A DNA stretch of 43,164 nt, taken from the IMG/VR virus record IMGVR_UViG_3300015245_000019; one strand, 5' to 3'. How positions within the stretch are numbered: the stretch's first letter is position 1; the number at the start of each line of letters is the position of its first letter. The notes under the pieces are model-generated. The model was not told the DNA's origin and did no database searches. It was given only the letters and a program-made list of their open reading frames with translations. The position numbers were made by a program, and so were the translations under genes. Source of the stretch: a virus. Below, piece by piece: positions 20,323 to 42,254 of this stretch.

Positions 20323-21171
20323 TCAGCTACGCTGAACTGGATTGAAGGCTTGCTCGGCTCTTGCCCAGGTCCAGGCGACACCGGCTTTGGCCGTTGTAAT
20401 GGAAGAAGGCACACAGAGCCAGTAGTCCTTGTAGGTGCCGTCCTTTTCTGGCGTGTTGTTTACGACTTTTAGCATACAGAGAGGTTCGTCGTTGGGGATC
20501 TCGGCACGGAAGAGTTGGCCCCAGTCGTCCTGGTGGATGGGCTTCAGCCCCATCGAAGAGATGTAGTTCTCCTTCCCGTAGCAATCGATCAAGATCCTTC
20601 TCTGCTCGATGTTTTTACAATCACGGATCATCGAGATCGGGATCTCGTGGGGGCGCATCACGGCCAGTTCGCCGACTTCGATGCCACGGATGAAGTAGAC
20701 CTTCAAGCCGTCACTGAAAGTGATCGCTGGGCCTTTCGTACTGTGGAGAGAACCGGTCTGGTTGAAGTGAACTGTCACCGGGAAGAAGTCGGACTTGTCG
20801 CCGATCGGAGAGAAGTAACAGGCCTGCCGCCAGACGGTTAGCACGTTGTTCGATAGAGCCCAGGCATCGGGCTGAGTGCGTGGCTTGAACGGTGCGACGT
20901 CTCCGCGATAGTGGATCGCCTCTGTGCCGTAGGTCGGAAAGAGAGCCTTTGCGGCACGGTGCGCCGCGAGACGAGCGCGATCTATTTCGGTCATTGTCGC
21001 AGTGTCAGTGTTGATTGGTTCTGTATCCATGATTAGAGATGGATCCTGTTGAATTTGTGTCCAGCCAGGAGTTGGTGCCCAATGTTGTTGTTGTGAAGCG
21101 AGTTGCTGCCACTCGCGGGCGGCAAAGACCTGCCACCGGGGTGGCGGGGGCTCTTGCGGTACCCCCGCCAC
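20323..21171 (-). CDS. Hypothetical protein with DUF6745-like C-terminal domain
   Basis: Start set at GTG 21171, the first start after the upstream stop (an ATG at MDTEPIN is an alternative). The C-terminus NIEQRRILIDCYG...YWLCVPSSITTAKAGVAWTW resembles DUF6745 as I recall it. Confidence 0.4.
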   Translation of the reverse strand: MAGVPQEPPPPRWQVFAAREWQQLASQQQHWAPTPGWTQIQQDPSLIMDTEPINTDTATMTEIDRARLAAHRAAKALFPTYGTEAIHYRGDVAPFKPRTQPDAWALSNNVLTVWRQACYFSPIGDKSDFFPVTVHFNQTGSLHSTKGPAITFSDGLKVYFIRGIEVGELAVMRPHEIPISMIRDCKNIEQRRILIDCYGKENYISSMGLKPIHQDDWGQLFRAEIPNDEPLCMLKVVNNTPEKDGTYKDYWLCVPSSITTAKAGVAWTWARAEQAFNPVQRS

Positions 21172-21187
21172 CTGCGCCGAAGGCGCC

Positions 21188-21580
21188 TCAGTCAGCGACC
21201 TGACGGGCTTTTGCTTCTCTGTCTCGGGTCTCGGAGCCGTGCTCGTACTCGCGCTGCCGGGTGACCTTCCAGAGACCGGGTTCGAGGGTGATCGGGCCAT
21301 GCTCAGGATGAGTGACCGTAACGCCTTCGGGATTCCGAACATGGAGAATCATCTCCTCGATCGCAGCGTTGTCGTCGGCAGTCAGGACGACAGTTTCCTT
21401 GTCCTCTTCGAGTGCGTGGAAGTGTCCGGTGATCTCGCCCTCAGCGAGGACGATCCGGCCGTAGGCCGTCTTCGTAGGGCTGTAACGGAAGCCCTTCGGG
21501 ATCGAGTCGATCTTCTCGAAGAAGATGTCGCCCTGATGGGCCTGGAGCGGCGGCTGTGCATCCTTCTCTTTCTTCGCCAT
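21188..21580 (-). CDS. Conserved phage protein of unknown function (QGD...EGE.TGH.H...HPEH...QREY pattern)
   Basis: 130 aa. QGDIFFEKI, LAEGEITGHFHAL, THPEHGPITLEPGLWKVTRQREY form a pattern I recognise from many phage genomes. No known function. Confidence 0.6.
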   Translation of the reverse strand: MAKKEKDAQPPLQAHQGDIFFEKIDSIPKGFRYSPTKTAYGRIVLAEGEITGHFHALEEDKETVVLTADDNAAIEEMILHVRNPEGVTVTHPEHGPITLEPGLWKVTRQREYEHGSETRDREAKARQVAD

Positions 21581-27105: not shown

Positions 27106-28080
27106 CTACTCGTAAAACTGCGCTTCTTCGTTGCTGCTGTCTTTTTCTGCCGCAGGCGGCGGCGGCGGCGGTAGTGCGCCGAGTGGCTGGCCTTTGGATT
27201 CAGGCAACGGCTCCGGGCGGAAGATTTGCTTGCCTTTCTTCCGTACCCAACGGCCACAGACGCCGTTTACGTAACCGATGTTGTTGTCAGCCCATGACTT
27301 GGGTAGTTTGGCGTTTTCCTTTCGCCATGTATCCCAATTGAACCGGCCATAGTCTGTGCTCTTGTAGTTGGGCTGGTAACACAGTCCGATTTCCCGGACT
27401 CGGCCTTGCTGCGGATCCAAACGGCACAGTACTTTGTCGGGTACGGTGTCGGATTTGATGCGATAGTCCATAAGCCAGACGTAATGGGCGGCTCGGTCGA
27501 TGATGCCTTCTGTCGAGGCAAATAGCATGACGCGCGTGCCGTTGGTCAAGTCAACGCGGTAGCTTTCGATCGGGTTTCCGTCTCGAATGAGATAGACCTT
27601 GTTTTCGTGGTAGACGGCGACGGCGGCACTGCCAAAGATGGAGCGTAAGAAGCGCGGCACCTTAAAGATGCCGTTCTTTTCGGCGTAAGCCGAAAATAGT
27701 TCGCTGTCTACGCCGGACGGCCAGAGAAGGCTGTGCGTCTCTGCGACTTTTTCGGGATTTCCGATAACGCCGTTGTGGATTGTGGCGATGCCGGAAGCGG
27801 AGACAAAAGGTTGCGCTTGTTCGTTGCCTTTCTCCCCGCAAGTTGGGGCGCGGGTATGGAGCAAGGCGTAACTTGCGCCGCCTTCGAGAAGCGCGGCGAA
27901 TTCGGGAAGAACGCCGAATTCGTCAGGAGATATGGCGCGTTTGAGTAGTTTGCCGTTCGTGTGAATCCCGGCACTCTGCTTTCCGCGCTCTTGGCCGAAG
28001 AACAAGAGCGCGCGGCATAAGCGCAGCGCCGTCTCGTAGGAAAGCGGTTTACTAGACGCGAAGCCGCTGATGCTGCACAC
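27106..28080 (-). CDS. Class-II (Ntn) glutamine amidotransferase-like protein with C-terminal extension
   Basis: GTG-TGC start gives an N-terminal Cys nucleophile (M)CSISGF. HTRAPTCGEKGNEQAQPF and IHNGVIGN match the purF-type GATase pattern. About 110 extra C-terminal residues end in a poly-Pro tract. An AGGAAGGA RBS is present. Confidence 0.7.
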   Translation of the reverse strand: MCSISGFASSKPLSYETALRLCRALLFFGQERGKQSAGIHTNGKLLKRAISPDEFGVLPEFAALLEGGASYALLHTRAPTCGEKGNEQAQPFVSASGIATIHNGVIGNPEKVAETHSLLWPSGVDSELFSAYAEKNGIFKVPRFLRSIFGSAAVAVYHENKVYLIRDGNPIESYRVDLTNGTRVMLFASTEGIIDRAAHYVWLMDYRIKSDTVPDKVLCRLDPQQGRVREIGLCYQPNYKSTDYGRFNWDTWRKENAKLPKSWADNNIGYVNGVCGRWVRKKGKQIFRPEPLPESKGQPLGALPPPPPPAAEKDSSNEEAQFYE

Positions 28081-29341
28081 GTTGCGGGGTTCCTTCCTTT
28101 GATAATTGGATGTACTCTGTGATGCGGACGTAACGCTCGAAGCGGCGGATGCGCCGGATGACGTACTTTCGGCCTTTGAGAGGCAAGTCGAGAAAGCGAT
28201 AGAAGGAGATGAGAAGTTGCCGGCCGGTTAGACGCTCGTCAGTGATTAAGACTGGAGCCGCTATCGCCTTTGTGACGAAACGGAGCAAGAGAAGGATCCA
28301 TTTCCGGATTAGTGTGGAGTTAACTGTGCCGTGATGGAGTCGGAATTCGTAACTTTTGTGCTTTGAATAGGCCGATGTATTAAGGGCTTGGTAGCGTGTG
28401 TGTTCCGGACGGAATCTCCCTTCCAGTTTGACGGAAGTGCAATAAGTGTTCTTCCGCCGTTGCTGGCGCACCATGGCGAAAAAGATCGGCTCGTAAAGGA
28501 ACCACCAGTACTCGATTTGTTTGCGTTGTGATGCCGTCACGGTTCGCATATCAATATGCACGTGAAAGCCACAAGAACGGTTGGAGTAAGACTGCGATGC
28601 CTTCAAAGCATCGCAAACGGAAGTCACTTGCGAGAGCAAGGTGTCGCCTCTCGCGATGCGGGATGCAAACTCGCGAGGATATCCGCCTTTGGCGGCGGTG
28701 GCCTTTATCGAGCCGTCGGATTTCAAATGGCCAAAGGGGCCGACAAAAGGCAAGTCGGAGAGACAATGTAGAAATTCTAATTCAAAACCTACGAATAGTT
28801 TACTCTTGTTCTGCATGAAAGTCGTGTCGGGAATCGGGAATCTTTGGGAGCATACAGCGCAAAACTTACTGCTATCTATGGTTACGAGGTTATTGGCCGT
28901 GAAATGGTGGTCGCAGTTTATGCATCTATCGCATCCTTCTACCGCGTAGCAACGGCGGCAGCAATGTCGCTGGCCGATACCGGCGTAATTGACAAGGCGG
29001 GATTCATTTGTCAATTCATGCCCTTTACATTGGCGGCACGTGATCCATTGTTCGTCTGAGCAGCAGTTAGAGCAAAGGTGACGAGTCTCTCTAGTGGCGA
29101 GATGCCAATCCATATCCGGGCCTGTCGGGAGAACCCAAACTGCTAACAGTTGGGAATTGCTTTTGTATAGCAATGTGTTACAAGTTAAGCAATTAGAGAA
29201 ATAGAGTTTTGCACATTTCCGGCAGAATTTAGCTCCCGCAACGGACTGATGGGTAAATGGTGCCTTTACCCATTGCACGCCGCATTGGGAGCATTGCCAC
29301 GGGATCGGCTTGTTTGGGGTCAGCTGTGAGGGATCAGGCAT
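28052..29341 (-). CDS. Amidoligase_2-type (GS/GCS2-like) COOH-NH2 ligase with four N-terminal zinc ribbons
   Basis: ATG at 29341 overlaps the upstream stop (ATGCCTGA). The N-terminal ~190 aa carry eight CxxC pairs (CSQC, CRKC, CLTC, CSNC, CRQC, CRRC, CDRC, CAVC). The C-terminal half has VGFELEF, KSDGSI, SCGFHVHID, YQALN and YEFRLHHGT, the PF12224 pattern as I recall it. AT-rich third codon positions. Confidence 0.7.
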   Translation of the reverse strand: MPDPSQLTPNKPIPWQCSQCGVQWVKAPFTHQSVAGAKFCRKCAKLYFSNCLTCNTLLYKSNSQLLAVWVLPTGPDMDWHLATRETRHLCSNCCSDEQWITCRQCKGHELTNESRLVNYAGIGQRHCCRRCYAVEGCDRCINCDHHFTANNLVTIDSSKFCAVCSQRFPIPDTTFMQNKSKLFVGFELEFLHCLSDLPFVGPFGHLKSDGSIKATAAKGGYPREFASRIARGDTLLSQVTSVCDALKASQSYSNRSCGFHVHIDMRTVTASQRKQIEYWWFLYEPIFFAMVRQQRRKNTYCTSVKLEGRFRPEHTRYQALNTSAYSKHKSYEFRLHHGTVNSTLIRKWILLLLRFVTKAIAAPVLITDERLTGRQLLISFYRFLDLPLKGRKYVIRRIRRFERYVRITEYIQLSKEGTPQRVQHQRLRV

Positions 29342-29615
29342 TGTCTGGCTGTTTTCGGGATATGCGGGATACACGTTCGTCGTCTCCCGAGTCGGGGCCG
29401 AAGGGATGATCTAGCCACAGTTTGAGCGGATACGGTTCTAGCCAACTAGGCCGAATTACTTTTCCTTCACCATCGCTTTGATCGTCGCCACACTCCCAAT
29501 ACGGACCTAGTAAAGACTTCGATAGTTTCCACAGCCCGGAACCGTGCTTTGGTATTGCAGCATGAAACCGAACGCGGGGCGCTAGGACCGACGATCGGCT
29601 GGCGGTCAAGGTCAA
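29334..29615 (-). CDS. Hypothetical protein upstream of the amidoligase
   Basis: 93-aa reading from a TTG that overlaps the upstream stop (TTGA). Its 3' part lies in the low-GC island. The start is uncertain. Confidence 0.4.
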   Translation of the reverse strand: MTLTASRSSVLAPRVRFHAAIPKHGSGLWKLSKSLLGPYWECGDDQSDGEGKVIRPSWLEPYPLKLWLDHPFGPDSGDDERVSRISRKQPDNA

Positions 29616-30355: not shown

Positions 30356-31079
30356 GTCGCCAGGCCGTTCCGGCGAATGACAGCACGCACGGTTTCGGGC
30401 TCTTTGCGCCCTGCTACTCCGCTTGCCATGCGGCGATGCTCAGCGCGGCGCGGCGACCGGCGACGCAAGCCGACCTAGCGAACGGCGTGCCAAGTCGCAA
30501 GTCGTTGCGCCGCAACTGGTTCTCTTTTTGCACGGCGCGGTTTGTCGGGCCTTTCGCACGATACGCAACGGCAAGATGCAATGTCGCGCAAAACGCAAGG
30601 CGCATTGCAAGTTGCAAGGTTTTCGCGCGCGCTACTGGAGCGGGAAAGGAGAGCTTGTTGAGACTGTGTCGCAACTATTGATAAACGCTTATGGCGAAAG
30701 GACTTACAGCCTTCTATGTCGGATAAGGACCATTATGTCAACTAGCTGGTACTCATTGCTACTGTTACAGTTACCATCATTCCAGACCCCTACCACCCCT
30801 CGTCCCCCGCGGCCGGATGCAATTCGCATTCCTAGCCCCCTCTTACTCCCGCGCCCACTTTGACTTACGCCCTTCGGGCGTGACAGCAACATTCCGGTTT
30901 GAATCTTTGTGATCTTCTCGGCATCTCACAGTTTGGATCCTCGTGAGGGTTCCTGCAGCTGCCAGTGCCAGGGCTGGTTTGTTCCCTGGCTGGAGGAGGG
31001 GCGCGAAGCGAACCGCGCCTTCCAGGGGTGCGGTGGTTCTAGCCGCACCCCGTTTCATTCCGGCGCATCGAAGGGCTCG
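30356..31079. promoter_or_regulatory. Divergent early/late control region
   Basis: This is the longest stretch without a convincing ORF, between the first - gene and the first + ORF. It has a dense CGCAA/TTGCG motif cluster at 30461-30680, a TTGACT hexamer at 30859-30864 and hairpins at 30867-30881, 30967-30990, 31000-31019 and 31025-31051. No promoter could be pinned down. Confidence 0.5.
31025..31051 (+). terminator. Terminator-like 9-bp hairpin in the late-operon leader
   Basis: GGGGTGCGG-tggttctag-CCGCACCCC followed by GTTTCATT, 29 nt upstream of the first micro-ORF ATG. Confidence 0.35.
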
Positions 31080-31205
31080 ATGATCTACGGGATCTGTACT
31101 CGTACTTTTGGCTATTATTTCTGGAAGCCCGACTGCCCATGCCACGACTGCCAGCTGTGGACCACCTGGCTCCATCGCATCGCGAGGCTGGCTCCGCCAG
31201 AATGA
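31080..31205 (+). CDS. Micro-ORF a (41 aa, MIYGICTRTFGYYFW..., Cys/aromatic-rich)
   Basis: ATG at 31080 with an AAGGG RBS 5 nt upstream. Its stop overlaps the ATG of micro-ORF b (ATGA). A longer GTG-initiated version (30909) has no RBS and spans the leader hairpins. Confidence 0.35.
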   Translation: MIYGICTRTFGYYFWKPDCPCHDCQLWTTWLHRIARLAPPE

Positions 31206-31426
31206 TCTCCGTCTACGGTTTCGGCTTCGTGGTGCGGTATCCGACTCGGATGGAGGCCGAGCTGTACCGTTCCTACTCCCAGCCTGGGCGCCGCTATCCC
31301 GTAACGACATCGGGCTACGCCTCCGGCATCGGTAGCGCCTTCTTCTTCCAGCAGCAGCAACGCCTTCTGCAACAGCGCGCCATCTTCGAGCAGCAGCACC
31401 CGCAGTGGCAACGCTCTCCCCGATGA
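31202..31426 (+). CDS. Micro-ORF b (74 aa, MISVYGFGF...)
   Basis: ATGA coupling at both ends. Aromatic and Gln-rich sequence. It shares its N-terminus with micro-ORF c. Confidence 0.45.
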   Translation: MISVYGFGFVVRYPTRMEAELYRSYSQPGRRYPVTTSGYASGIGSAFFFQQQQRLLQQRAIFEQQHPQWQRSPR

Positions 31427-31632
31427 TTCCAGTCTACGGCTTCGGCTTTCGGCGGTGGGCCGAAGTTGGATCCTTCAGGATGCACAATGGTATAATCTGG
31501 ACAGATTATTGGCTCGACTGGCTGGGTGATACGGCAGGTTTTACGACGGGCTACTTCACGGTGGGAACGGGCAATGGGCAAGGGACGGCCGGCGACAAAG
31601 TTGAAGGAGATCCAGCAGTACCTGCTGGTTGA
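31423..31632 (+). CDS. Micro-ORF c (69 aa, MIPVYGFGF...)
   Basis: ATGA coupling to micro-ORF b. Trp/Tyr/Gly-rich. Its last ~58 nt overlap the terS-candidate start. Confidence 0.4.
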   Translation: MIPVYGFGFRRWAEVGSFRMHNGIIWTDYWLDWLGDTAGFTTGYFTVGTGNGQGTAGDKVEGDPAVPAG

Positions 31633-32173
31633 GGCGGCTCTCGGCCGCCATCCCACTTTGTGGGAAGCGGCCGACGCGACGAAGGCCCACTACATGACGG
31701 TCTCGCGAGCACGAGCTTCGCTCGTGAACACCGGCCAGCTCCCCGCACCGCCGCGCTCTTACAAGCCGCCTCGGGCCGTGCGGGTCGCAACGGAGTCGCC
31801 GTCAGCCTCCGACCAAGGCCATCCTGCCGCGGTGCGGCCCGCCGTCCCGTCTCTTCCCTCCTCTCCTGAGCCGGATAGTTCACAAAGTAAGGACGAGGAC
31901 GAAGTCCTCCGCGCCATCTCGGTATCTCTCTCTCCGGAGGAGCAGCGCGAAGAGCTGTCTCGTCTTGCCCGCGACGCCTCTCGCGACGAAGTCCGCGTCA
32001 GCGCGCTAAGCGCGCTCGCACGTCTCGACTCCATGACCGGCTCTCAAGTTGGTGCCGGCATTCCACCGCCTCTCACGGAGGAGGACCGCATTGCGCGGCT
32101 ATCAGTTCTTTGCCGGGCCGTCGGTGAAAGCGTGGCTCGACTTGCGTTCAAGATGGCCTTCAACCGTGAATGA
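31574..32173 (+). CDS. Small terminase subunit candidate (N-terminal HTH)
   Basis: Start set at MGKGRPATKLKEIQQYLL... HTH-like region TLWEAADATKAHYMTVSRARASL, a disordered Pro/Ser linker and a helical C-terminus. It lies upstream of terL. Confidence 0.5.
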   Translation: MGKGRPATKLKEIQQYLLVEAALGRHPTLWEAADATKAHYMTVSRARASLVNTGQLPAPPRSYKPPRAVRVATESPSASDQGHPAAVRPAVPSLPSSPEPDSSQSKDEDEVLRAISVSLSPEEQREELSRLARDASRDEVRVSALSALARLDSMTGSQVGAGIPPPLTEEDRIARLSVLCRAVGESVARLAFKMAFNRE

Positions 32174-32336
32174 CACTCCTCCCATACCTATCTATTCCGA
32201 CCACGAGCGGCAACTGTTGGCCAAGATCCGGGAGAACGAAGAGCGCGTTACCCGGCTCGCGATAACCAACAAGATGCTCCGCGCCGCAATCGAGGACATG
32301 AAGGACCTACTGAGGAGCTATGGCCACGAAGTCTAG
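32166..32336 (+). CDS. Small coiled-coil protein
   Basis: 56 aa from a GTG overlapping the terS-candidate stop. ERQLLAKIRENEERVTRLAITNKMLRAAIEDMKDLL. Confidence 0.4.
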   Translation: MNDTPPIPIYSDHERQLLAKIRENEERVTRLAITNKMLRAAIEDMKDLLRSYGHEV

Positions 32337-32517
32337 ACGCACCAAAACGCACGTCTCGAAGTTCGAATTCAAGACGTCGGACGATCTGGTCCGCTTTATT
32401 ACGGCAGTTGATGTATACGATACGCGTTACTATCCACCATTGCTCTTACCGAAGGACGGATGGAGAACCCCCGACCTCGAAGGACTGCCAGTCTATGGAT
32501 ATGGCTTCTCTTTCTGA
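32320..32517 (+). CDS. Small protein ending in PVYGYGFSF
   Basis: 65 aa with an ATG start overlapping the previous ORF. The C-terminal residues carry the VYGYGF motif at 32491-32508. Confidence 0.45.
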   Translation: MATKSRRTKTHVSKFEFKTSDDLVRFITAVDVYDTRYYPPLLLPKDGWRTPDLEGLPVYGYGFSF

Positions 32518-32677
32518 GATCGGGGTTTACGGCTACGACCTGGCACGGGATTACCACGTCATAGTGGCTGGCATGACCGGTCATCTGCTGGAACGCATCG
32601 AAACCGACATCTTCGCCCTCTACTCCAAGGATGGAGTTGATGACGATAAACGCCCCGCCCAGCCCTCCTCTCCCTGA
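32495..32677 (+). CDS. Small protein MDMASLSEIGVYGYDLARDY...
   Basis: 60 aa from the ATG at 32495, which lies inside the previous ORF's motif codons. It overlaps the terL start by 47 nt. Confidence 0.35.
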   Translation: MDMASLSEIGVYGYDLARDYHVIVAGMTGHLLERIETDIFALYSKDGVDDDKRPAQPSSP

Positions 32678-34442
32678 GCCGGATAGTGTAGCCGGCGCCT
32701 TCGGCGCTTGGTCCTCCGACGACGAAGCGGCTCTTTGGGCCGACATCTGCCGGGAGTCCTTCTGGTGGTTCCTCCAAATTGCCTGGGGTGCGGCCTTCTA
32801 CATGGAGGCCAATCCCCACGACCGCTGGCTAACCGAGCGCCTCCACAAGCCGATCTGCGACTGGCTGGAGCGGCACGCCCGGGACTGGGAGGGCCGGCGC
32901 GCCGCCGGCTTGAAGGAGAGGAAGAAGCTCGCCGTCATCCTTCCCCGGTCCTACGGGAAGACGGTCATCGTGACGAAGGCCCTCACGCTCTGGGCTCACA
33001 TCAGAAATCCTAACATCGCCACCTACATCGGCAGCGAAACTGCTGAGAAGGCCCTCGACTTCCTCCGGCCCGTGAAGGCGGTCCTCGACGGAAGCGATGG
33101 TTTTTCTCGCTTCACGAAGCTCTACGGCAACTGGTACAACCCAGAACGGCTGTGGACTCACAGAACACTTGTTCACGCGATGCGTGAACAAGTAGGCCGT
33201 TCAGAGCCATCGTTTGACACTTGGGGAGTGGAGCAGGGCATCACCGGCGCCCACCCCGACTGGGGAGTCTTCGATGACCCGATCTCGGAAGAGAAGCTCA
33301 AGGACAGTGGGGCCTGGATCAGTTCCGTCAACACCGCGATTGCGGCTCTCCGCCCGGCATTTCGCACGGATTCTTTCTTTGTGTTGGTCGGCACCCGTTA
33401 CCGGGACAACGACGCCATCGGGACCTACCTTCCGATGGAAGGGGTAAAGACCTGGTCGGGAATGCAGTGCCCTGAGGCTCGCCTCTCCCCGCAGGAGAGG
33501 GGAGAGTGGGACGTGTACTACCTCCAGGCCCTCGACAACAATGGGGAGAGCACTTTCCCCGAGATGTGGCCGACGGAGGAACTACGTAAGTACCAAGGGT
33601 CGAAGTCGATCGAGTTCGCCTCGCAGATGATGAATGATCCCGCCTCGGGGGAGCATATGGTCCTCACGATGGAACAGGTGGACCAGCTCTGGGTGGAGAA
33701 GGAGAACCTCCCAAGTTATCTCTCCTACTCGATCCACTGCGACACGGCTTTTAAGGCGATGGCGAGGATGGGCCGCGGGGACGAGTCGGTCGTCGTGGTC
33801 TTCGGCCACGACATGCGCGGCAACGGGGACGTGTACTACATCGAGGGCTACGGATCGAACACCTGGCGCATAGAAGAGTTCACTGACGAGCTGTTGAAGA
33901 TCTGCCAGAACTACAAGCGGCAAGGGAAGCGGATTCGGATCCTCACGGACGAGCGGGAGATGGGCGGGAAGACCGGCACTTGGGAGTCGTGGCTCCGAAG
34001 TGCCTTCGCGGGAGCCGGCGTGCTGATGCCGCCATTTCAACTGCTCAACAGGTCGAAACTGAAGAAGGAACTCCGCATCCGGGAAGCCGCAGGCTTCTGG
34101 GTTGATGGCCACGTCAGGCTGATTCGCGGCGCACCGGGCGTCCACCGCCTCCTTACCCAGATGATTCGGATCGGCGTTTCGGCCCACGACGACTGGGCCG
34201 ACGCTGCTGCCGACACCTTCGCCCCCGAAGTCTACAAGCCGATGCTCAACCCGGAGCGCAGCTCCGGGGACGATGGTGCCTATCCCGTCCAGCCAGGTGA
34301 CGACTTCCTCGGCCGGCGTTTGACGAACGACGCCGTCCGGAAGTTCTATGACGTCGCGAATGGTCAGTGGGTGAACAAGTTCTTCGACGAAAGAGAAGAG
34401 GAAATGAGCAAATGGGCTGCAAACATTAAAGATGTCTCTTGA
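32631..34442 (+). CDS. terL: Terminase large subunit
   Basis: 603 aa. Walker A-like ILPRSYGKTV and Walker B VFDDPISEE. C-terminal RNase H-like nuclease region (YSIHCDTAFK, VVVVFGHD, DDWADAAAD). Confidence 0.85.
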   Translation: MELMTINAPPSPPLPEPDSVAGAFGAWSSDDEAALWADICRESFWWFLQIAWGAAFYMEANPHDRWLTERLHKPICDWLERHARDWEGRRAAGLKERKKLAVILPRSYGKTVIVTKALTLWAHIRNPNIATYIGSETAEKALDFLRPVKAVLDGSDGFSRFTKLYGNWYNPERLWTHRTLVHAMREQVGRSEPSFDTWGVEQGITGAHPDWGVFDDPISEEKLKDSGAWISSVNTAIAALRPAFRTDSFFVLVGTRYRDNDAIGTYLPMEGVKTWSGMQCPEARLSPQERGEWDVYYLQALDNNGESTFPEMWPTEELRKYQGSKSIEFASQMMNDPASGEHMVLTMEQVDQLWVEKENLPSYLSYSIHCDTAFKAMARMGRGDESVVVVFGHDMRGNGDVYYIEGYGSNTWRIEEFTDELLKICQNYKRQGKRIRILTDEREMGGKTGTWESWLRSAFAGAGVLMPPFQLLNRSKLKKELRIREAAGFWVDGHVRLIRGAPGVHRLLTQMIRIGVSAHDDWADAAADTFAPEVYKPMLNPERSSGDDGAYPVQPGDDFLGRRLTNDAVRKFYDVANGQWVNKFFDEREEEMSKWAANIKDVS

Positions 34443-34504
34443 CACACGCGAAGTGCGCCGTATCGTTTCCCGTGTGGCCAAAGGCCACACGGGAGGGGCA
34501 GCGG

Positions 34505-35218
34505 GTGGCGGACGAGTATCAGCAGATTGTTGAAGACCTAGCACCGGAGGCGCCAGCGGCGCCTCCGGACATTGCCGCGCCTCTCCTCCCCCCCGAGACG
34601 GTTCCAGCTGGTTACCCAAGGCCACCGCACGACGCTGATTTTCGCGTCGTCTACTTCGATCTAGAGATCCGTAACTCCATCGAGTCTTGCGGGGGCTGGG
34701 AAGGCGCCATCAGCCAAGGCGGAGTCTCAGCTCTTTGTCTCTGGGACTCGATCGACGAAAACGCCGTCTTCTACGACGACCACTGCCTCGATACTGCAGC
34801 TCTCCACCTCGAAGATGCCGACGTCGTTGTGTCTTTCAACGGGAAGGCTTTCGACGTGCCGCTTATCGAGCGGCATCTCCGGCGCACCCTTCACCTGAAA
34901 GAGCACATCGACGTCTTCGAGCTGGCGAAGAAGGGCCTTGAGCGATACGGCAAGCCGTGGAAGGGCAACGGTCTCGATGCTCTATCATCGAAAACGGTCC
35001 ATCGCGGAAAGAACGGCGTAGGTTCCCACGCTCCGCAACTCGTTGCGGAGGGCCACTGGGCGGAGTTGTTCACCTACTGCCTTCGAGACGTGGTTCTCAC
35101 CCGCGATTTGCTCACCTTTGCCCGCCGAAACGGCTACATCTTCGATAAGGACGGCCAAGTCTTGCCTCTAGATGTCCCGAGCTGGCTGCAGCTGCGCCCC
35201 GGAGTAACGCCCAAGTGA
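34505..35218 (+). CDS. DEDD / RNase H-like 3'-5' exonuclease (YprB-like)
   Basis: Start set at a GTG with a GGGAGGGG RBS; the ORF track starts at TTG 34439. VVYFDLEIRN, VVSFNGKAFDVPLIERHL, HIDVFE and TYCLRDVVLTRDLL follow the DEDD pattern. Confidence 0.6.
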   Translation: MADEYQQIVEDLAPEAPAAPPDIAAPLLPPETVPAGYPRPPHDADFRVVYFDLEIRNSIESCGGWEGAISQGGVSALCLWDSIDENAVFYDDHCLDTAALHLEDADVVVSFNGKAFDVPLIERHLRRTLHLKEHIDVFELAKKGLERYGKPWKGNGLDALSSKTVHRGKNGVGSHAPQLVAEGHWAELFTYCLRDVVLTRDLLTFARRNGYIFDKDGQVLPLDVPSWLQLRPGVTPK

Positions 35219-37131
35219 CCTCTATGAGTGAGGTAAGGCTGGACCCAACCGCCGAAGGGCGCCGGGACCAGATTGCCGGGCTAGTTCGGGCAAGAAAAGA
35301 GCACTCGGAGAACCACTTTTCGGGGATCCGGAGAGAACTCCCCCAGTACTACGATCTCTATCGCGGCGTCATCACGGGCCGGCACACCCCGCACAAGAAC
35401 AACATCCACATCCCGCTGATTTTTAGCACCATTCAGAGCGACGTGGCGCGGAAAACCCAGACGTCCTTCGGCTCTTGGCCGATTGTGTCGTTCGTTGGCT
35501 ACGATCCGGGTGATGCGTCGCTTGCTCGGAAGCGCGAGGCCCTCATCTCGGCGCAAATGCGCGACATGGGCATCTTTAGGAAGGGCTACGAGGTGTTTCT
35601 CACGGCGGATCTCTACGGAACGGCCGTTATTCGCTACGGGTGGGACCGAAGAGACCAAGAGATGGATGTCGAACGGTTCGATCGCCTTCCGCTGAGCGGG
35701 AAGATGGTCCGAGTAGCGAATCAGCAGACCGTTACCATCTTCGACGGCCCGAACTTCGTGGTAAAGGATCTCCTCGACTGCTTTCCGCAGCCCGGTTTCC
35801 GCACAATCGAGACGATGGGCTGGTTCTGTGAGCAGGACTACATGGATTGGGACCTGATCCGCATGTATTCTGAGATGCCGATGAGCGGAGGGTACTTTTT
35901 CGACCCTGCAGAGGTCGAAAGGATGAGAACTGACGGCGGAACGTCGGTCACAGAGATCGACACGCAGGACTACAAGAGCTGGAGGACGCAAAGCCGCACG
36001 ATGGTCGAGGAAGACGCTCGGCAGAGCGAGCGATACGCCCGTCCAGTAAAACTGATCACGATGTGGGGAAAGATTCCGTCGGAGTTGGCCCCGGACGGTA
36101 TCGTGGATCGCGTGATCACTGTGGCCAACGGCAAATACGTCCTCCGGAACCGACCGATTCCCTTCTGGGCAGGACAGAAACCGTTCTTTGCGTATTCTCC
36201 AATGCCGGATCCGCACTACTTTTTTGCCGCGGGAAAGGCCGAAGTGGCGGCGAAGTTGCAGGTGCTCGCAAACCGTTTCACCAACCAGCAGCTCGATGCG
36301 CTGGAGATCTTCATCGATCCGGTCTTCTTCGTGAACTTGAATAGCGGCCTCGATACGAGGAATCTGTTTATCCGACCGGGCAAGTTTATCCCGATGGACG
36401 GAAACCCGGCCGAGATGATCATGCCGCTCCAGCCGAACCTGACTGGCCTCCAGCTGGGCGGGCAGATGACAGAGTCTGTCTGGCGGTGGATGCAGCAAGG
36501 CTCTGGCATCGTCGAAGACACCGTCATGGGGGGCGGCGCGCAGAGACAGACAGCGCGGGAGTTCTTAGGGCGGAGCGAAGCTGTCGCCACGCGGCTTCTG
36601 ATGGAGTCTCGCATGTTCGAGGAGATCTTCCTGGAGCCGCTTGCCGACACTTTCGTCGATCTAAACCGCCAGTTCCTTGAGCACGACAAAGAGGTCTTTA
36701 TCCTCGGGCAGAGTGCCGACCAGGATCCCGTCACTGGCGAGCCGGTCCCAGCCCAAACCCGTCTTCTTGTTACCGGCTTCGATCTTGTGCCGAACTACGA
36801 AGCACGGGCTCTTGGATCGACGACAAAGCTGGCTCGGAGTCAGCGCCAGCAGACGTTGACGTTCCTCATGCAGGCGATGGGGTCGAATCCGATGGTGGCG
36901 TCTGCCGTGAACTGGATCAACTTCTTCCGGGACACGCTTCGTGAGTTCGAGATCGCCAACGTGAACGAGATCATCAACACGCCGGCGCAACAGGCGGCAA
37001 TGATGCAGGCCCAGCAAGGCGCCGGAGCGGCTCCGGGACCTGCCGTCCCCGGCCAGGCAGCAGAACCGCGGCTTGTGGTTAGCGGCGGATTGCCGACTCT
37101 GCCGGGTCAGGGCACTGAGACGATACAGTAA
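35215..37131 (+). CDS. Portal (head-tail connector) protein, podovirus/T7 gp8-like
   Basis: 638 aa with a GTGA overlap on the upstream gene. It follows terL. The N-terminal pattern YYDLYRGV...NIHIPLIFSTIQSDVARKTQTSFG resembles T7-type connector proteins. Confidence 0.8.
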   Translation: MTSMSEVRLDPTAEGRRDQIAGLVRARKEHSENHFSGIRRELPQYYDLYRGVITGRHTPHKNNIHIPLIFSTIQSDVARKTQTSFGSWPIVSFVGYDPGDASLARKREALISAQMRDMGIFRKGYEVFLTADLYGTAVIRYGWDRRDQEMDVERFDRLPLSGKMVRVANQQTVTIFDGPNFVVKDLLDCFPQPGFRTIETMGWFCEQDYMDWDLIRMYSEMPMSGGYFFDPAEVERMRTDGGTSVTEIDTQDYKSWRTQSRTMVEEDARQSERYARPVKLITMWGKIPSELAPDGIVDRVITVANGKYVLRNRPIPFWAGQKPFFAYSPMPDPHYFFAAGKAEVAAKLQVLANRFTNQQLDALEIFIDPVFFVNLNSGLDTRNLFIRPGKFIPMDGNPAEMIMPLQPNLTGLQLGGQMTESVWRWMQQGSGIVEDTVMGGGAQRQTAREFLGRSEAVATRLLMESRMFEEIFLEPLADTFVDLNRQFLEHDKEVFILGQSADQDPVTGEPVPAQTRLLVTGFDLVPNYEARALGSTTKLARSQRQQTLTFLMQAMGSNPMVASAVNWINFFRDTLREFEIANVNEIINTPAQQAAMMQAQQGAGAAPGPAVPGQAAEPRLVVSGGLPTLPGQGTETIQ

Positions 37132-37436
37132 TGCCACTCGACGAGGCTCACGAGGCGCTGTCAAGGCTGCTCTTGAATCCGGCTTGGGACGGGGTTATCA
37201 AAACCCGGATTAACTTGATGGTGAAAACGCTGTACAATCAGATCATCGACCCGTCGCAGAACCGGAAGGACAGAGCAAGTGACGACTTCATTCGGGGACA
37301 GATACAGGCTCTGAAGTGGGTTGTGACGTTCCCCGACGAGGAGATGAACCACGCAGTAACGGAGATCCTAATGGAGGCGGAGCCTCCTCCGCCTCCGCCG
37401 CTGTTCGGCGACCAAGGAAGGACGCCCAATGAGTGA
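37131..37436 (+). CDS. Hypothetical protein between portal and scaffold
   Basis: 101-aa ORF with a TAATG overlap on the portal stop. Poly-Pro near the C-terminus. Confidence 0.55.
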   Translation: MPLDEAHEALSRLLLNPAWDGVIKTRINLMVKTLYNQIIDPSQNRKDRASDDFIRGQIQALKWVVTFPDEEMNHAVTEILMEAEPPPPPPLFGDQGRTPNE

Positions 37437-38403
37437 CGAAGTAGCACCTCCTACAAAAGAGCAGACCGCAGAAGAGGCAAAAGGCAGTTTGCTGGATGCT
37501 ATCTCCCAGCAGGCTCTCGATGCCACTGGCGGGGACGTGTATCGCGCGGGTCAGCCCCTCGCGACTCCGGACCAGCCCCCTGTGGCCCCTGCAAAAGCGG
37601 CGGCTGATGCCGCCGCTGGCGGCGAAGAGACCTCCTCTTCTCAGCCGAAGGCTGAGGAACCGCTCGATAGACTTGGGCGGCTTCTCGGCAATAAGTACAC
37701 CTCGATCGAAGAGGCGGAGAAGGGCATCCACCAGCTGCTCCAAGACCGGAAGGCGGCGCAAGACTCTGCGACGAACGCTCATGCTGAGCTAGAGCGTATC
37801 CGCGGTGCCGTTGTAGCGAATGGCCACGCAGCGGCAGAGCCGCCGCCGGACCCTATGTCGGAGCTGGAGATGCTCGGATTCCCGAAGGACATCATGGAGA
37901 GGGCGATTGAACACAAGCTGCGAGCTGTTATCGCAGCGGATGCTAAGCCCTTCAATGAGCGCGTGGCTGCGGACAAGGAGATCGTCGGAAAGTACCCCGA
38001 CTATGAGAAGCAATTCGATGAGCTGAGCAGCTGGCTCGGGCAACACAAAGACATCGAAAAGCAGGTGCTTCTTGCGGAGAACGCGGGCCACTACACGCTG
38101 GCGAGAGAATTCGCCTGGCTCCAATTCGATCGAGACAAGGCAGCGAGGACAGAGACCCAAACAACCGATGCGGCAGCGGAAACCGCCGTGAAGCGCACAG
38201 AGAAGAGAAGTGACGCGAGGACCTTTCAACCCAGCCAGACAACGGAAGCTCGTATCCCGCCTCCAGCGGAAAACCGGAATGTGATCGGCAAAGACGAGTT
38301 TCAGAAGCTAACGGACCTTGCGAGGGCGGGCTACGAGCAGCCGCTCTGGCGCAGAACGATCGGAGAGACGCTGTCTAAAGACGTGTTTCCAGATTCGAAT
38401 TAG
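37429..38403 (+). CDS. Scaffolding protein
   Basis: 324 aa with an AAGGAAGGA RBS. Ala/Glu/Lys-rich helical composition. It sits between the portal and the major capsid gene. Confidence 0.6.
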   Translation: MSDEVAPPTKEQTAEEAKGSLLDAISQQALDATGGDVYRAGQPLATPDQPPVAPAKAAADAAAGGEETSSSQPKAEEPLDRLGRLLGNKYTSIEEAEKGIHQLLQDRKAAQDSATNAHAELERIRGAVVANGHAAAEPPPDPMSELEMLGFPKDIMERAIEHKLRAVIAADAKPFNERVAADKEIVGKYPDYEKQFDELSSWLGQHKDIEKQVLLAENAGHYTLAREFAWLQFDRDKAARTETQTTDAAAETAVKRTEKRSDARTFQPSQTTEARIPPPAENRNVIGKDEFQKLTDLARAGYEQPLWRRTIGETLSKDVFPDSN

Positions 38404-38431: not shown

Positions 38432-39448
38432 ATGGCAGCTCCTGGTAATTTTGGGGTCTATGGATTCGGCTTTCTCGCAGGAGCGGGGGCGAATCGAGAG
38501 GACCTGCTAGACCTCATCACCAACGTGGATCCGTGGGACACTCCGTGGGTGTCTCAGGCGCCGAAGGTGCGCGCCATGCACGTGGTCCACGAGTGGCTGA
38601 GGGACACGCTTGCCGCCACGAGCACCGCTTCTGGCGCCGCAGGCGCCATTGCCGTTGAAGGTGACGACTGGGCGTACAACACGCTCACGACACGCCCGAC
38701 GCGGGTGACGAATCAGACGATGATTTTCCGGAAGGACATCGCGGTGTCTGAGACACAGCGAGCCGTCAATCCGGCCGGCTTCAAGGACGCGTACAGCTAC
38801 GAAATCGCGAAGGCGACGAAAGAACTCGCCAGGAACATGGAAGTTTGGTTCTTCCACGTCTGTGCGACGGGCGATACGGGGTCGAGTGCCGCGGTGCGCC
38901 GCGCGATCGGCTTCCAGGGCTTCATCACAACGACGGCTGCCACAAACCGTACCGTTTCCTCCCTCGGCTCTGCAACGAACAACAGCGGTGTGCTTACGCA
39001 GAACGACATCAACAACGCTCTGCAGGACGCCTTTACCAACGGTGCCGATCCGGAGCTGGTTTTTGTCTCTCCGGCCATCAAGCGGCAGATTAGTGCATTC
39101 ACTGTCACCCAGCAAAACCGAAACATCGCTGCGATCGAGAAGAAGCTCGTCAACTCGGTGGATTTCTACCTCAGCGACTTCGGAATGATTCAGCTGATTC
39201 TCGACCGTTGGGTTCCTCAAGCGGCGAGCACGAGCACCGCGACGGCGCAGGCTACGGACGTCTCGGGGAACATCTTCTTCCTCGAACGTGCAAAGAACCG
39301 TCTCGCATGGTTACGGCCGATGGCTCACACGCTCATCGGGAAGCGCGGCGACAGTGTCGCCGGGTCGATTCTCGGAGAAGTAACGCTCGAAGTGCTCTCG
39401 GAAAGAGCGAACTACCGCATCAATCGCGTCAGTAACGTCACTGCGTAG
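38432..39448 (+). CDS. Major capsid protein (DUF5309 / SU10-type, HK97-fold)
   Basis: 338 aa with a GGAGGG RBS. EDLLDLITNVDPWDTPWVSQAPKVRAMHVVHEWLRDTL matches the N-terminal signature of DUF5309-type capsid proteins as I recall it. It follows the scaffold and is followed by a strong hairpin. Confidence 0.8.
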   Translation: MAAPGNFGVYGFGFLAGAGANREDLLDLITNVDPWDTPWVSQAPKVRAMHVVHEWLRDTLAATSTASGAAGAIAVEGDDWAYNTLTTRPTRVTNQTMIFRKDIAVSETQRAVNPAGFKDAYSYEIAKATKELARNMEVWFFHVCATGDTGSSAAVRRAIGFQGFITTTAATNRTVSSLGSATNNSGVLTQNDINNALQDAFTNGADPELVFVSPAIKRQISAFTVTQQNRNIAAIEKKLVNSVDFYLSDFGMIQLILDRWVPQAASTSTATAQATDVSGNIFFLERAKNRLAWLRPMAHTLIGKRGDSVAGSILGEVTLEVLSERANYRINRVSNVTA

Positions 39449-40611: not shown

Positions 40612-40944
40612 ATGCCGACTTACAGCCTGAACATGGCCGATGAGAAGTTCATCAACCAAGTCCTTGAGCCGGAGGAATTGACCAGGCGGGTTCCCCGCCT
40701 GGCGACGTTCTTCGAGGGGATCAAAGAACAACGCGGAGCATTGGCCGATCTCGGAACGAAAGGGCCGAAGACAGGTTCTACTGGCTGGTGGAAGAACGGG
40801 ACGGCGCAGTATCTCGGTACTGTGCCGATCTCGGTCAAGATGGCGATTCAAGAGATCGACCCCGAGTTCTGGGAAGATCAGCGGAAAGTGATGCGCTTCT
40901 TCGCCACTCACCCCGAATACGTTGTCACGTCGGTGTCGAAATGA
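40612..40944 (+). CDS. Hypothetical protein
   Basis: 110-aa ORF. Its stop overlaps the glycosyltransferase ATG (ATGA). Confidence 0.55.
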   Translation: MPTYSLNMADEKFINQVLEPEELTRRVPRLATFFEGIKEQRGALADLGTKGPKTGSTGWWKNGTAQYLGTVPISVKMAIQEIDPEFWEDQRKVMRFFATHPEYVVTSVSK

Positions 40945-42254
40945 CCGAGCACAAGGACGGAGTGCCGTCGGAAGAGGCGTTCAAAGACCCGTCTCGGAGG
41001 CGCAGTCGCCCGAAGTTTGGGGTCTACGCCAAATCGATGGGGGAGAACAACGGCTGCCTTTACTACCGTGTGGAAGTCCCGACTCGGGGCCTCTTCAAGC
41101 TCGGCCTTGCAGAGGCATTTGTAGACGCGGGCCGTGGAGCCGTAGACGAGTCGATTGGGGCTCTCTTTTCTGCGGAGATCATCCTGAACTTCGCTCTTTC
41201 TGGCGGCTCTGTCGAGGCGGTGCTCAATGCTCTCTCGAACATGAGGTCGGGAAAGACGGATGACGGCAACGAGGTGATTTTCCCTCCGTCGTTCGTCTTC
41301 GACCTTGACGACCGGATCGACTACACACACCCGTTCAACCCGGCCTTTGTGCATCTGGGCGTTCGGGCTTACGACGGCACGCCGTTGAAGAATGGCGACC
41401 GGCTCGTGACGACCTTTCCGGACGGTACGGACGTCATCCTCTGGGAGGACGGTGTCACAAGGCACGAGGTGCAGCACGAGGTCGTCACGTTCGACGTAGA
41501 GCGGAACTGGCGGAGAGTTAACCAAGTCTTCGACACGGCCCGAAGGGCCGATGGCGTCACTGTGCCGTCGCCGGCACTGGCCGAGTTCTACCGAGAACTA
41601 GGCGCGAAGGACGTGTACATCTTCCCGAACTCGGTGATCCCGGAGGACTACCCTGCGCCGCAGCTTGTTCCGCGCCCCGAAGGGGCGGTCCGCATCATGT
41701 GGCAAGGTGGTGCGTCCCACATGGTGGATTGGTTCCCGCTCCGGGACGCGGTCAGAACCATTGCGTTGAAGTATCCGAAGGTCAAGTTCGTCATCTGGGG
41801 GACTCACTACCCGTGGATCCACGACAACATCCCGAAGGAGCAACTGGAACTGAAGAGTTGGGTCCCGTATGACGCCTACAAGCCGATGCGGGGCATCGTG
41901 GACGTGGACATCAACCTCTGTCCCCTCGTGGACAATGTCTTCAACAAGGGGAAAAGTGCCATCAAGTGGTACGAGTCCGTCCTTCCCTTCGAGCCGGAAG
42001 CAACGCTCGCGGCAAAAGCGGCTCCCTACAGTGACGAGATTGAAGACGGAAAGACCGGGCTCCTCTACAGCAGTCCCGAAGAGTTCGTCGAAAAACTGAG
42101 CGCCCTCATCGAGAACGTACAGCTGCGGAAGACACTCGCTCGCGAAGCGCGCTCCTGGGTGATCGCCAATCGGCACTACGAGAAGACGGTTCCCGGCCTT
42201 TTCGAGTTCTACCAACATTTACGCGCGCGTAAGCGCGTCGCCCTGGCGGCCTAA
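40941..42254 (+). CDS. GT-B fold glycosyltransferase (group-1 / CgeB-like C-terminal domain)
   Basis: 437 aa from the ATG at 40941. VRIMWQGGASH, KVKFVIWG, and LCPLVDNVFNKGKSAIKWYES...YSDEIEDGKTGLLYSSPEEFVEKLSALIENVQLRKTLAREA follow the GT1 C-terminal pattern. Confidence 0.6.
   Translation: MTEHKDGVPSEEAFKDPSRRRSRPKFGVYAKSMGENNGCLYYRVEVPTRGLFKLGLAEAFVDAGRGAVDESIGALFSAEIILNFALSGGSVEAVLNALSNMRSGKTDDGNEVIFPPSFVFDLDDRIDYTHPFNPAFVHLGVRAYDGTPLKNGDRLVTTFPDGTDVILWEDGVTRHEVQHEVVTFDVERNWRRVNQVFDTARRADGVTVPSPALAEFYRELGAKDVYIFPNSVIPEDYPAPQLVPRPEGAVRIMWQGGASHMVDWFPLRDAVRTIALKYPKVKFVIWGTHYPWIHDNIPKEQLELKSWVPYDAYKPMRGIVDVDINLCPLVDNVFNKGKSAIKWYESVLPFEPEATLAAKAAPYSDEIEDGKTGLLYSSPEEFVEKLSALIENVQLRKTLAREARSWVIANRHYEKTVPGLFEFYQHLRARKRVALAA

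Follow-up and report, generated by a model that had tools for sequence, protein, structure and literature searches.

A capsid N-arm peptide at the start of small open reading frames preceding the terminase genes of a podophage

Results

Coupled open reading frames upstream of the terminase genes

The IMG/VR virus record IMGVR_UViG_3300015245_000019, a 43,164-nt stretch of DNA that was analysed whole and is referred to below as the window, carries on its plus strand three short open reading frames (ORF1, ORF2 and ORF3), each joined to the next by an ATGA stop/start overlap exactly as an earlier note on this sequence had described. The placement given there is also right: the three ORFs precede the packaging genes and open the plus-strand structural block. 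This work concerns a short peptide, VYGFGF, which stands near the N-terminus of ORF2 and ORF3, and its relation to the major capsid protein (MCP) of the same phage. The features of the ORF region are as follows.

31080-31205, plus strand: ORF1, 41 aa, N-terminus MIYGICTRTFGYYFW
31202-31426, plus strand: ORF2, 74 aa, N-terminus MISVYGFGFVVRY, starting MISVYGFGF, with the motif at 31211-31228
31423-31632, plus strand: ORF3, 69 aa, N-terminus MIPVYGFGFRRW, starting MIPVYGFGF, with the motif at 31432-31449
31174-31238, plus strand: RNA hairpin with an 18-bp outer stem, enclosing the ORF1 stop and the ORF2 start (-34.4 kcal/mol, z = -2.64)
31574-32173, plus strand: terS-like gene encoding a 199-aa putative small terminase or winged helix-turn-helix DNA-binding protein, assigned by position, orthologues and weak helix-turn-helix similarity

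An N-terminus of the MI(x)VYGFGF type had been ascribed to all three ORFs. It is present in ORF2 and ORF3, but ORF1 has only MI and YG in common with them. Likewise, the start context GATGAT is found at ORF1 and ORF3, but ORF2 has AATGAT. Enrichment in aromatic residues holds for all three (F, Y and W together make up 17-20% of residues, versus 8.8% in 15 long genes of the window), but the proposed enrichment in glycine applies to ORF3 only (20%, versus 4.9% in ORF1, 8.1% in ORF2 and a background of 8.2%). ORF2 is, in addition, rich in Gln, and ORF3 is rich in Trp, Gly and Thr. The codons reported for the two VYGFGF copies (GTC TAC GGT TTC GGC TTC versus GTC TAC GGC TTC GGC TTT) are exact.

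A Shine-Dalgarno-like sequence, GAAGGG, is located 5 nt upstream of ORF1, which alone among the three ORFs has such a site. The hairpin over the ORF2 start was equalled in stability by 2 out of 200 shuffled sequences, and its 3' half includes the segment that codes for the VYGFGF peptide of ORF2. Fold z-scores calculated at the starts of ORF3 (+2.0) and of the terS-like gene (+0.7) indicated no structure there, in contrast to the ORF2 start (-2.6). Structure over the ORF2 start agrees with a dependence of ORF2 initiation on ribosomes that have completed ORF1 and, together with the ATGA overlaps and the presence of GAAGGG at ORF1 only, fits a termination-reinitiation pathway leading from ORF1 to ORF2 to ORF3. 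Judged from these signals, ORF1 probably loads ribosomes for the coupled ORFs. At the distal end of the array, the last 59 nt of ORF3 overlap the start of the terS-like gene (31574).

To score coding potential, codon usage was compared with that of the 15 long genes of the window, with open stretches of equal length read in wrong frames as the null. The score of ORF2 exceeded those of all 174 wrong-frame open stretches and fell at the 36th percentile among true-frame chunks, and its GC content at the three codon positions (0.61/0.47/0.79) is similar to that of the MCP gene. ORF3 scored in the top 1% of the null. The score of ORF1 was ambiguous, being matched by 16% of open wrong-frame stretches. 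ORFs on the minus strand that overlap the ORF1-3 region had negative codon scores. In a European Nucleotide Archive (ENA) contig of identical sequence, an independent gene caller had called ORF2, ORF3 and two further small ORFs described below, gp65 and gp60; ORF1 was not called.

An in-frame stretch inside ORF2, TTSGYASGIG (31304-31329), lies 102 nt past the ORF2 start, and its DNA is 65% identical to that start (ATGATCTCCGTCTACGGTTTCGGCTT). This stretch is either a degenerate repeat of the shared peptide or a product of chance, and is treated here as a possible chance match.

The VYGFGF peptide in the major capsid protein

Copies of the peptide that the earlier note had overlooked are present in the MCP and, in full or in part, in two small ORFs located upstream of the gene for the large terminase, TerL.

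38432-39448, plus strand: MCP of the SU10/DUF5309 type (PF17236, E 9e-67)
32320-32517, plus strand: gp65, 65 aa, paralogue of the MCP N-arm, C-terminus ..GLPVYGYGFSF followed by the stop codon, with the motif at 32491-32508
32495-32677, plus strand: gp60, 60 aa, N-terminus MDMASLSEIGVYGYDL..., overlapping the gp65 stop and the TerL start, with VYGYDL at 32525-32542

A degenerate pattern for the peptide, GTNTAYGGNTWYGGNTTY, matched the plus strand of the window four times, compared with 0.03 matches expected, and none out of 100 shuffles reached four. Full copies are found in ORF2, ORF3 and the MCP (VYGFGF) and in gp65 (VYGYGF), and a partial fifth copy is found in gp60 (VYGYDL). The four 18-nt copies vary at five columns, four of which are third codon positions, while the remaining one changes F to Y (hypergeometric P ~0.02). 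In pairwise comparisons of motif copies, the proportion of synonymous differences (pS) was 0.5-1.0, and that of nonsynonymous differences (pN) was 0-0.07. The wobble bases of the motif also vary freely among the genomes of nine MCP orthologues, and ORF2 and ORF3 resemble each other from the ATG itself through codon 9 and no further. Since the differences are nearly all at wobble positions, pS is high and pN low, orthologue codons vary, and the similarity is bounded by the ATG, we conclude that constraint acts on the peptide rather than on the DNA, which bears out what had been supposed from the ORF2 and ORF3 copies.

In contrast, the proposal that the ORFs are a tandemly duplicated family does not stand. 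No DNA similarity was detected when the bodies of the three ORFs were compared with one another, with the 5' region of the MCP gene and with gp60 (p = 0.39-0.98), and at protein level these bodies did not resemble other motif-bearing proteins. By these comparisons, the sharing is confined to a nine-residue module at the N-terminus of otherwise unrelated proteins, and there is no duplicated gene family. An ungapped register of ORF3 on the MCP, with matching I, D and W residues, is striking by eye and was rejected at p = 0.10.

In the MCP, VYGFGF makes up residues 9-14 (38456-38473), and the N-arm tip that contains it reads MAAPGNFGVYGFGFLAGAGANREDLLDLI. About 120 MCP homologues have the N-arm pattern G.Y[GK][FYW]G[FL] ahead of the helix N(R/K)EDLLD. 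Across an alignment of 46 MCP sequences, Y10 never varies and the conservation of G13 is 90% or more. Such conservation marks the N-arm tip as old within the MCP family. The nearest solved MCP is Pa223 gp65 (PDB 9NY2, E 4e-21), whose N-arm is defined as residues 1-33; it is modelled over residues 1-317, i.e. from the very first residue, so that in this different phage the N-arm tip is retained.

Comparisons with relatives were made on at least 30 related loci (designated by L numbers below) that were retrieved through their TerL and MCP homologues. No covariation of the small-ORF motif with the MCP motif of the same genome was evident in L001, L004, L006 and L007. Taken as a joint claim, it is likely that the ORF2 and ORF3 frames are coding and that the motif within them is constrained as protein; we are somewhat more confident still that the resemblance of the motif to the MCP tip is due to descent or selection, and not to coincidence.

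Small open reading frames upstream of TerL

A stretch of gp65, DDLVRFITAVDVYDTRY, resembles MCP residues 23-39. Comparison of the window gp65 with its own MCP gave a BLASTP E of 0.006, and the gapless local score against the N-arm had p = 0.003. In the L006 orthologue of gp65, REDLIDFIVAIDPWDTPWVQPAP (residues 19-41) is 74% identical to residues 22-44 of the L006 MCP (E 7e-12), with a pS of 0.76 (synonymous sites saturated) and a pN of 0.19. Saturation of synonymous sites in this pair indicates an old duplication that has been held at the protein level. The window and L006 gp65 orthologues align over their full length (22/63 identical residues), and both end in an aromatic-G-aromatic-G arrangement (YGYGF in the window, WGFGL in L006). 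These alignments make gp65 a paralogue of the N-arm helix of the MCP. Its paralogy provides independent support for the notion that this lineage keeps small N-arm-derived proteins in the packaging module.

The partial motif of gp60, EIGVYGYDL, is located near the gp60 N-terminus, 34 nt past the gp65 copy and in the +1 frame. Members of the gp60 family start with M..x..[AI][VI]YG[FLY][DN]L. Orthologues are found directly upstream of TerL in L006 (4053-4199) and L007 (2495-2680), and in L004 as a fused form (3850-4197) with one motif copy. Beyond VYG and the aromatic residue, similarity of gp60 to the MCP is not significant.

Where the gp65 stop and the gp60 start overlap (window 32482-32545), two aromatic-Gly motif copies are offset by +1. 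L006 has the same layout at 4037-4080, versus the fused arrangement at 3850-4197 of L004. The two-copy and fused layouts could have arisen by duplication or deletion between the copies, or could reflect a programmed frameshift that produces the fusion.

More distant relatives have another ORF of 67-74 aa directly upstream of TerL, which is Cys-rich and aromatic and has the pattern CPxCG..CPHCGR....YPWW. It is found in L015 at 1062-1268 (the same as L012 38-244), in L016 at 4029-4232 (the same as L017 7788-7991) and in L019 at 1665-1889; the L016 and L015 versions match with an E of 9e-7. From its pattern, this ORF may encode a zinc-binding micro-protein of the packaging module. ORF1 was considered as a member of this family of Cys-rich aromatic small ORFs and rejected, as no alignment was obtained.

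A lineage-specific insertion downstream of a conserved block

Two non-coding features are located upstream of ORF1.

30720-30869, plus strand: conserved non-coding block that aligns with L002, L004, L006 and L007, with invariant runs including CCATTATGT, GCATTCCTAG and ACTTA
31025-31051, plus strand: terminator-like hairpin with a 10-bp stem (8 G-C pairs), followed by GTTTCATT, found by a terminator scan 29 nt upstream of ORF1

Counterparts of the block are found at ~8330-8600 in L002, ~2690-2860 in L004, ~2930-3136 in L006 and ~1600-1800 in L007. The conserved runs read ATGTCG.ATAA..CCATTATGTCAAC, then ATTCGCATTCCTAG.CCCCTCTT.CTCC and TTTGACTTAC. The block is kept across the five genomes even though their proteins are only ~70% identical, and the window has a single copy of it. 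Its probable role is that of a late promoter, leader or operator, and it could also be a packaging site.

In L002, L004, L006 and L007 terS comes nearly immediately after the block; the distance from the end of the block to the terS ATG is 3-12 nt in L006 and L007, versus ~705 nt in the window. Since this gap contains the hairpin together with ORF1-3 and is absent from relatives, ORF1-3 reside in a lineage-specific insertion of ~700 nt. No motif copy was found upstream of terS in L002, L004, L006 and L007, and no extra motif copies were found in the more distant L030, L032, L033, L013, L014, L016, L017 and L023.

Positioned between the block and ORF1, the hairpin at 31025-31051 resembles a promoter-proximal terminator that would require read-through; relatives are without it. 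The surrounding region, 30990-31085, is strongly structured (-49 kcal/mol, z = -3.1).

Searches for relatives of the small proteins

The statement that no described family has this signature was confirmed, as ORF1-3 were unmatched in Pfam, PHROGs, NCBIfam, PADLOC and Rfam; gp65 and gp60 gave no match in the same five collections. The suggested search for relatives of the ORF peptides revealed no family outside this genome. Among 1.84 billion representative proteins ORF2 matched only itself, and in a search of 5.8 billion proteins ORF3 and gp65 matched only themselves. No relative of ORF3 was found in IMG/VR, and none of ORF2 in the GTDB genomes. The pattern ATGATH-NNN-VYGFGF had no matches in IMG/VR. 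The looser ATG-N6-VYGFGF had nine, which is approximately chance level, in internal, non-ORF or unrelated contexts.

Genome context

The window has identical ends of 77 nt (1-77 = 43088-43164), which indicates a circular metagenomic assembly with 43,087 unique bases. Of the ENA contig ERZ27253147 k141_2960178 (24,337 bp), the 20,210 bp compared are identical to the window (from 21423). The phage is a podophage of the SU10/DUF5309 capsid lineage with a genome GC content of ~60%. Early genes, including those of replication, are on the minus strand to the left of 30355, while the structural block on the plus strand begins at the ORF1-3 region and crosses the circular junction. Phages in GenBank are distant (MCP identity of 34% or less), and blastn of 30800-33000 against them gave no match. 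A far closer MCP, 91% identical (P0002), is present in a Logan run. The remaining assigned genes of the head module are listed below.

32631-34442, plus strand: TerL, large terminase (phrog_38, E 3e-53)
35215-37131, plus strand: portal (PF23899)
37429-38403, plus strand: scaffold candidate of 324 aa, assigned by position only

The terS-like protein had no match in Pfam and PHROGs. Its profile gave weak matches to winged helix-turn-helix regulators (E 0.02-0.1), and orthologues occupy the equivalent position in L002, L003, L004, L006, L007, L015 and L016. Between the terS-like gene and gp65, gp60 or TerL, 32124-32336 encodes a small coiled-coil-like protein with the C-terminus ..LLRSYGH(D/E)(I/V), which has counterparts in all close relatives (L002 9741-9968; L004 3597-3905; L006 3703-3879; L007 2311-2505). 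Between TerL and the portal, the ORF at 34439-35218 shows similarity to RNase H-like or 3'-5' exonuclease proteins (PF13482, PF10108, phrog_403). A nuclease gene is unusual at this location; in L005, L006 and L007 the same place is taken by ORFs of 237-251 aa, matched by size and position only.

Other observations concern genes elsewhere in the window. In the early region, 27106-29374 on the minus strand contains adjoining genes for an Amidoligase_2 protein (PF12224) and a class-II glutamine amidotransferase, a pair also present at 1-1424 of L032, whose MCP is 68% identical, and 20323-21342 on the same strand encodes a DUF6745 protein (E 7e-40). A glycosyltransferase-like gene (PF13524) is located within the structural block at 40941-42254; the same Pfam family is listed in the structural-block gene tables of L006, L007, L032 and L033.

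Discussion

The reading that we tentatively favour is that ORF2 and ORF3 are translated, lineage-specific micro-proteins in which a copy of the hydrophobic tip of the MCP N-arm acts as a tag for docking or targeting, in the manner of the capsid targeting sequence (CTS) of phage T4. We infer translation, the docking function and the binding partner, and the following sequence of events can be envisaged. Ribosomes would load at the Shine-Dalgarno site of ORF1 and would reach ORF2 and ORF3 by termination-reinitiation at the ATGA overlaps, with the hairpin over the ORF2 start making the ORF2 step depend on ORF1 translation. The VYGFGF peptide would then bind the assembly partner of the N-arm tip, which may be an adjacent MCP subunit, the scaffold, or N-arm sockets left vacant around the portal vertex, and the tagged micro-proteins would be recruited to, or compete at, the assembling procapsid. 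According to this scheme, gp65 and gp60 would be apparently older members of the same tag strategy.

A broader version of this idea, which we regard as unlikely, is that the lineage reuses pieces of its own N-arm as portable modules, the tip on ORF2, ORF3 and gp65 and the helix on gp65. The modules would serve either for protease-independent capsid addressing, in which case hypervariable micro-proteins might be loaded or anchored on the procapsid, for example at the empty N-arm sockets around the portal vertex, or as decoys against host immunity that senses the capsid N-terminus.

Several results weigh against a docking tag. Five relatives whose TerL is 69-74% identical (L002, L004, L006 and L007 among them) do without ORF1-3, and relatives with MCPs 63-68% identical have no extra motif copies. 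Both ORF2 and ORF3 are singletons and so offer no orthologues from which purifying selection on their bodies could be demonstrated, and beyond the hexapeptide the similarity of ORF2, ORF3 and gp60 to the MCP N-arm is not significant (p = 0.71, 0.14 and 0.68, respectively). The RNA that encodes the ORF2 motif is also half of a hairpin, so some RNA-level constraint on that copy is possible. No protease family was found among the proteins encoded from TerL to MCP and the ORFs using Pfam, PHROGs and NCBIfam, though a very divergent protease could escape such searches. Finally, AlphaFold2 models were uninformative: ORF3, predicted from a single sequence, had a predicted local distance difference test score (pLDDT) of 44, and the window MCP, with an overall pLDDT of 71, was below 50 at residues 1-12 and so says nothing of the tag.

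It is possible, if on balance improbable, that ORF2 and ORF3 are instead young orphan ORFs without a dedicated function. An insertion of ~700 nt would have gained open frames, VYGFGF would have arrived through micro-duplication or template switching from the MCP gene or gp65, and the ORFs, whether translated or simply tolerated, would be neutral passengers (proto-genes or morons). Such an origin agrees with the failure of ORF2 and ORF3 to match anything in every database searched, with their absence from five relatives where terS directly follows the conserved block, with the unrelated bodies of odd composition (aromatic-, Gln- or Gly-rich), and with the low-confidence structure of ORF3 and the ambiguous coding score of ORF1. 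However, the codon usage of ORF2 and ORF3 is typical of established genes in this genome, and the synonymous sites of the motif are near saturation while the peptide is identical, so the copies are either old and maintained or convergent. The two-fold enrichment in aromatic residues, which have AT-rich codons, in a genome of 60% GC is contrary to what would be expected from drift, and the precise ATGA coupling, which occurs twice, looks selected.

It is distinctly improbable, in our estimate, that the ORFs constitute a translational leader cassette that controls the flow of ribosomes into terS and TerL by coupling, by unmasking of structure, or by Erm-type arrest at approximately codon 9, the free peptides being irrelevant. 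Arrest peptides of ca. nine hydrophobic residues are a known kind. The location of the ORFs between the conserved block and terS, the terminator-like hairpin upstream of them, the Shine-Dalgarno sequence at ORF1 only, the strong hairpin over the ORF2 start and the 59-nt overlap of ORF3 with the terS start are all compatible with a leader. Yet ORFs of 74 and 69 aa with gene-like codons are far longer than a leader requires, the terS start is unstructured, and relatives express terS without any such cassette. Identity with the MCP tip and the C-terminal copy in gp65 would also be left unexplained.

We consider it highly improbable that the peptide is a processing or chaperone signal, that is, a site recognized by a protease (of the host or of the phage) or a chaperone whose other target would be the N-terminus of the MCP, in a Prp-like fashion. 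A motif close to the N-terminus is indeed common to the MCP (residues 9-14) and to ORF2 and ORF3 (residues 4-9 in both), and a common N-terminal motif on phage proteins that are not homologous has a precedent (PMC5744158). However, the tip is retained in the Pa223 MCP model, no protease gene was detected in the head module, and the gp65 motif is C-terminal. Scarcely credible, lastly, is a DNA or RNA repeat of 18-27 nt that would act as a binding site or recombination linker (e.g., as terminase recognition repeats), with the ORFs incidental: the copies are direct repeats on one strand, two of them 221 nt apart before the terS-like gene and two just upstream of TerL, and the ORF2 copy is within a stable hairpin, but motif variation is nearly all at third codon positions (4/5 columns), the MCP copy is conserved as protein while its codons vary freely in nine genomes, relatives have no copy upstream of terS, and the repeat is bounded exactly by the ATG.

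If the docking tag works as proposed, six residues would suffice to direct small proteins of any kind to a capsid of the HK97 fold, with no need for a maturation protease. The tag would then provide a compact handle for the engineering of phage cargo, and would offer insight into how hypervariable accessory genes can be fitted into an assembly machinery that is itself conserved. Either form of the module idea, capsid addressing or decoy, would, if true, be a previously undescribed case of phage self-mimicry. The locus is also a concrete case of capsid-gene fragments duplicated into new small genes, of which gp65 is the clearest, and thus bears on the origin of phage orphan genes. Should the ORFs be neutral passengers or a leader cassette, they would be an ordinary lineage-specific curiosity.

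Comparison with known systems

In phage T4, diverse, fast-evolving small internal proteins (IPI, IPII, IPIII and their hypervariable relatives) share an N-terminal head-address peptide of ~10 residues, the CTS (PMC3012670). ORF2 and ORF3 are similar in being small, with unrelated bodies and a common short N-terminal peptide, and in belonging to a lineage-specific, plastic gene set. However, the T4 tag is cleaved by the prohead protease and is not present in the T4 MCP, whereas the peptide described here is part of the MCP and no protease was found. In addition, ORF2 and ORF3 precede the terminase genes of a podophage and have no sequence relationship to the T4 proteins.

The capsid and scaffold proteins of phage 80alpha share an N-terminal Prp cleavage motif with ribosomal protein L27, and the motif is also found on non-homologous phage proteins (PMC5744158). 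Here too, one short N-terminal motif is present on the MCP and on non-homologous proteins of the phage. The Prp motif, in contrast, is a site (F|A) for a host protease and was copied from a protein of the host, whereas the nearest solved relative of our MCP keeps its N-terminus and the gp65 copy is C-terminal. The ORF2 and ORF3 tag is thus a member of neither the T4 CTS nor the 80alpha Prp system.

Mimicry of head-assembly proteins is known from satellites: CpmB of SaPI1 shares the C-terminal capsid-binding helix of the scaffold, and Ccm of SaPIbov5 is a homologue of the capsid protein (PMC5644958; PMC8569155). As in those cases, part of a head-assembly protein recurs on a small protein, which would engage the same interface, and gp65 is a true paralogue of an MCP segment. 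The satellite mimics, however, belong to parasites of phages and redirect capsid size, whereas the copies reported here are in the packaging module of the phage itself.

With coupled upstream ORFs and Erm leaders, the locus has in common short ORFs, stop-start overlaps, a hairpin that covers the start of ORF2 and a nonapeptide of hydrophobic character at the N-terminus; unlike Erm leaders, the ORFs are 69-74 aa long and use normal codons, no alternative structure covers the terS start, and the peptide matches a structural protein. Like the R sites of lambda cosB and pac boxes, the copies are direct repeats that adjoin a small-terminase gene, but they vary as coding sequence would and not around a DNA consensus, and relatives have no repeats there. 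These comparisons suggest that two known kinds, N-terminal address peptides and mimicry of assembly proteins, are extended here by the reuse of a capsid N-arm peptide on orphan micro-proteins.

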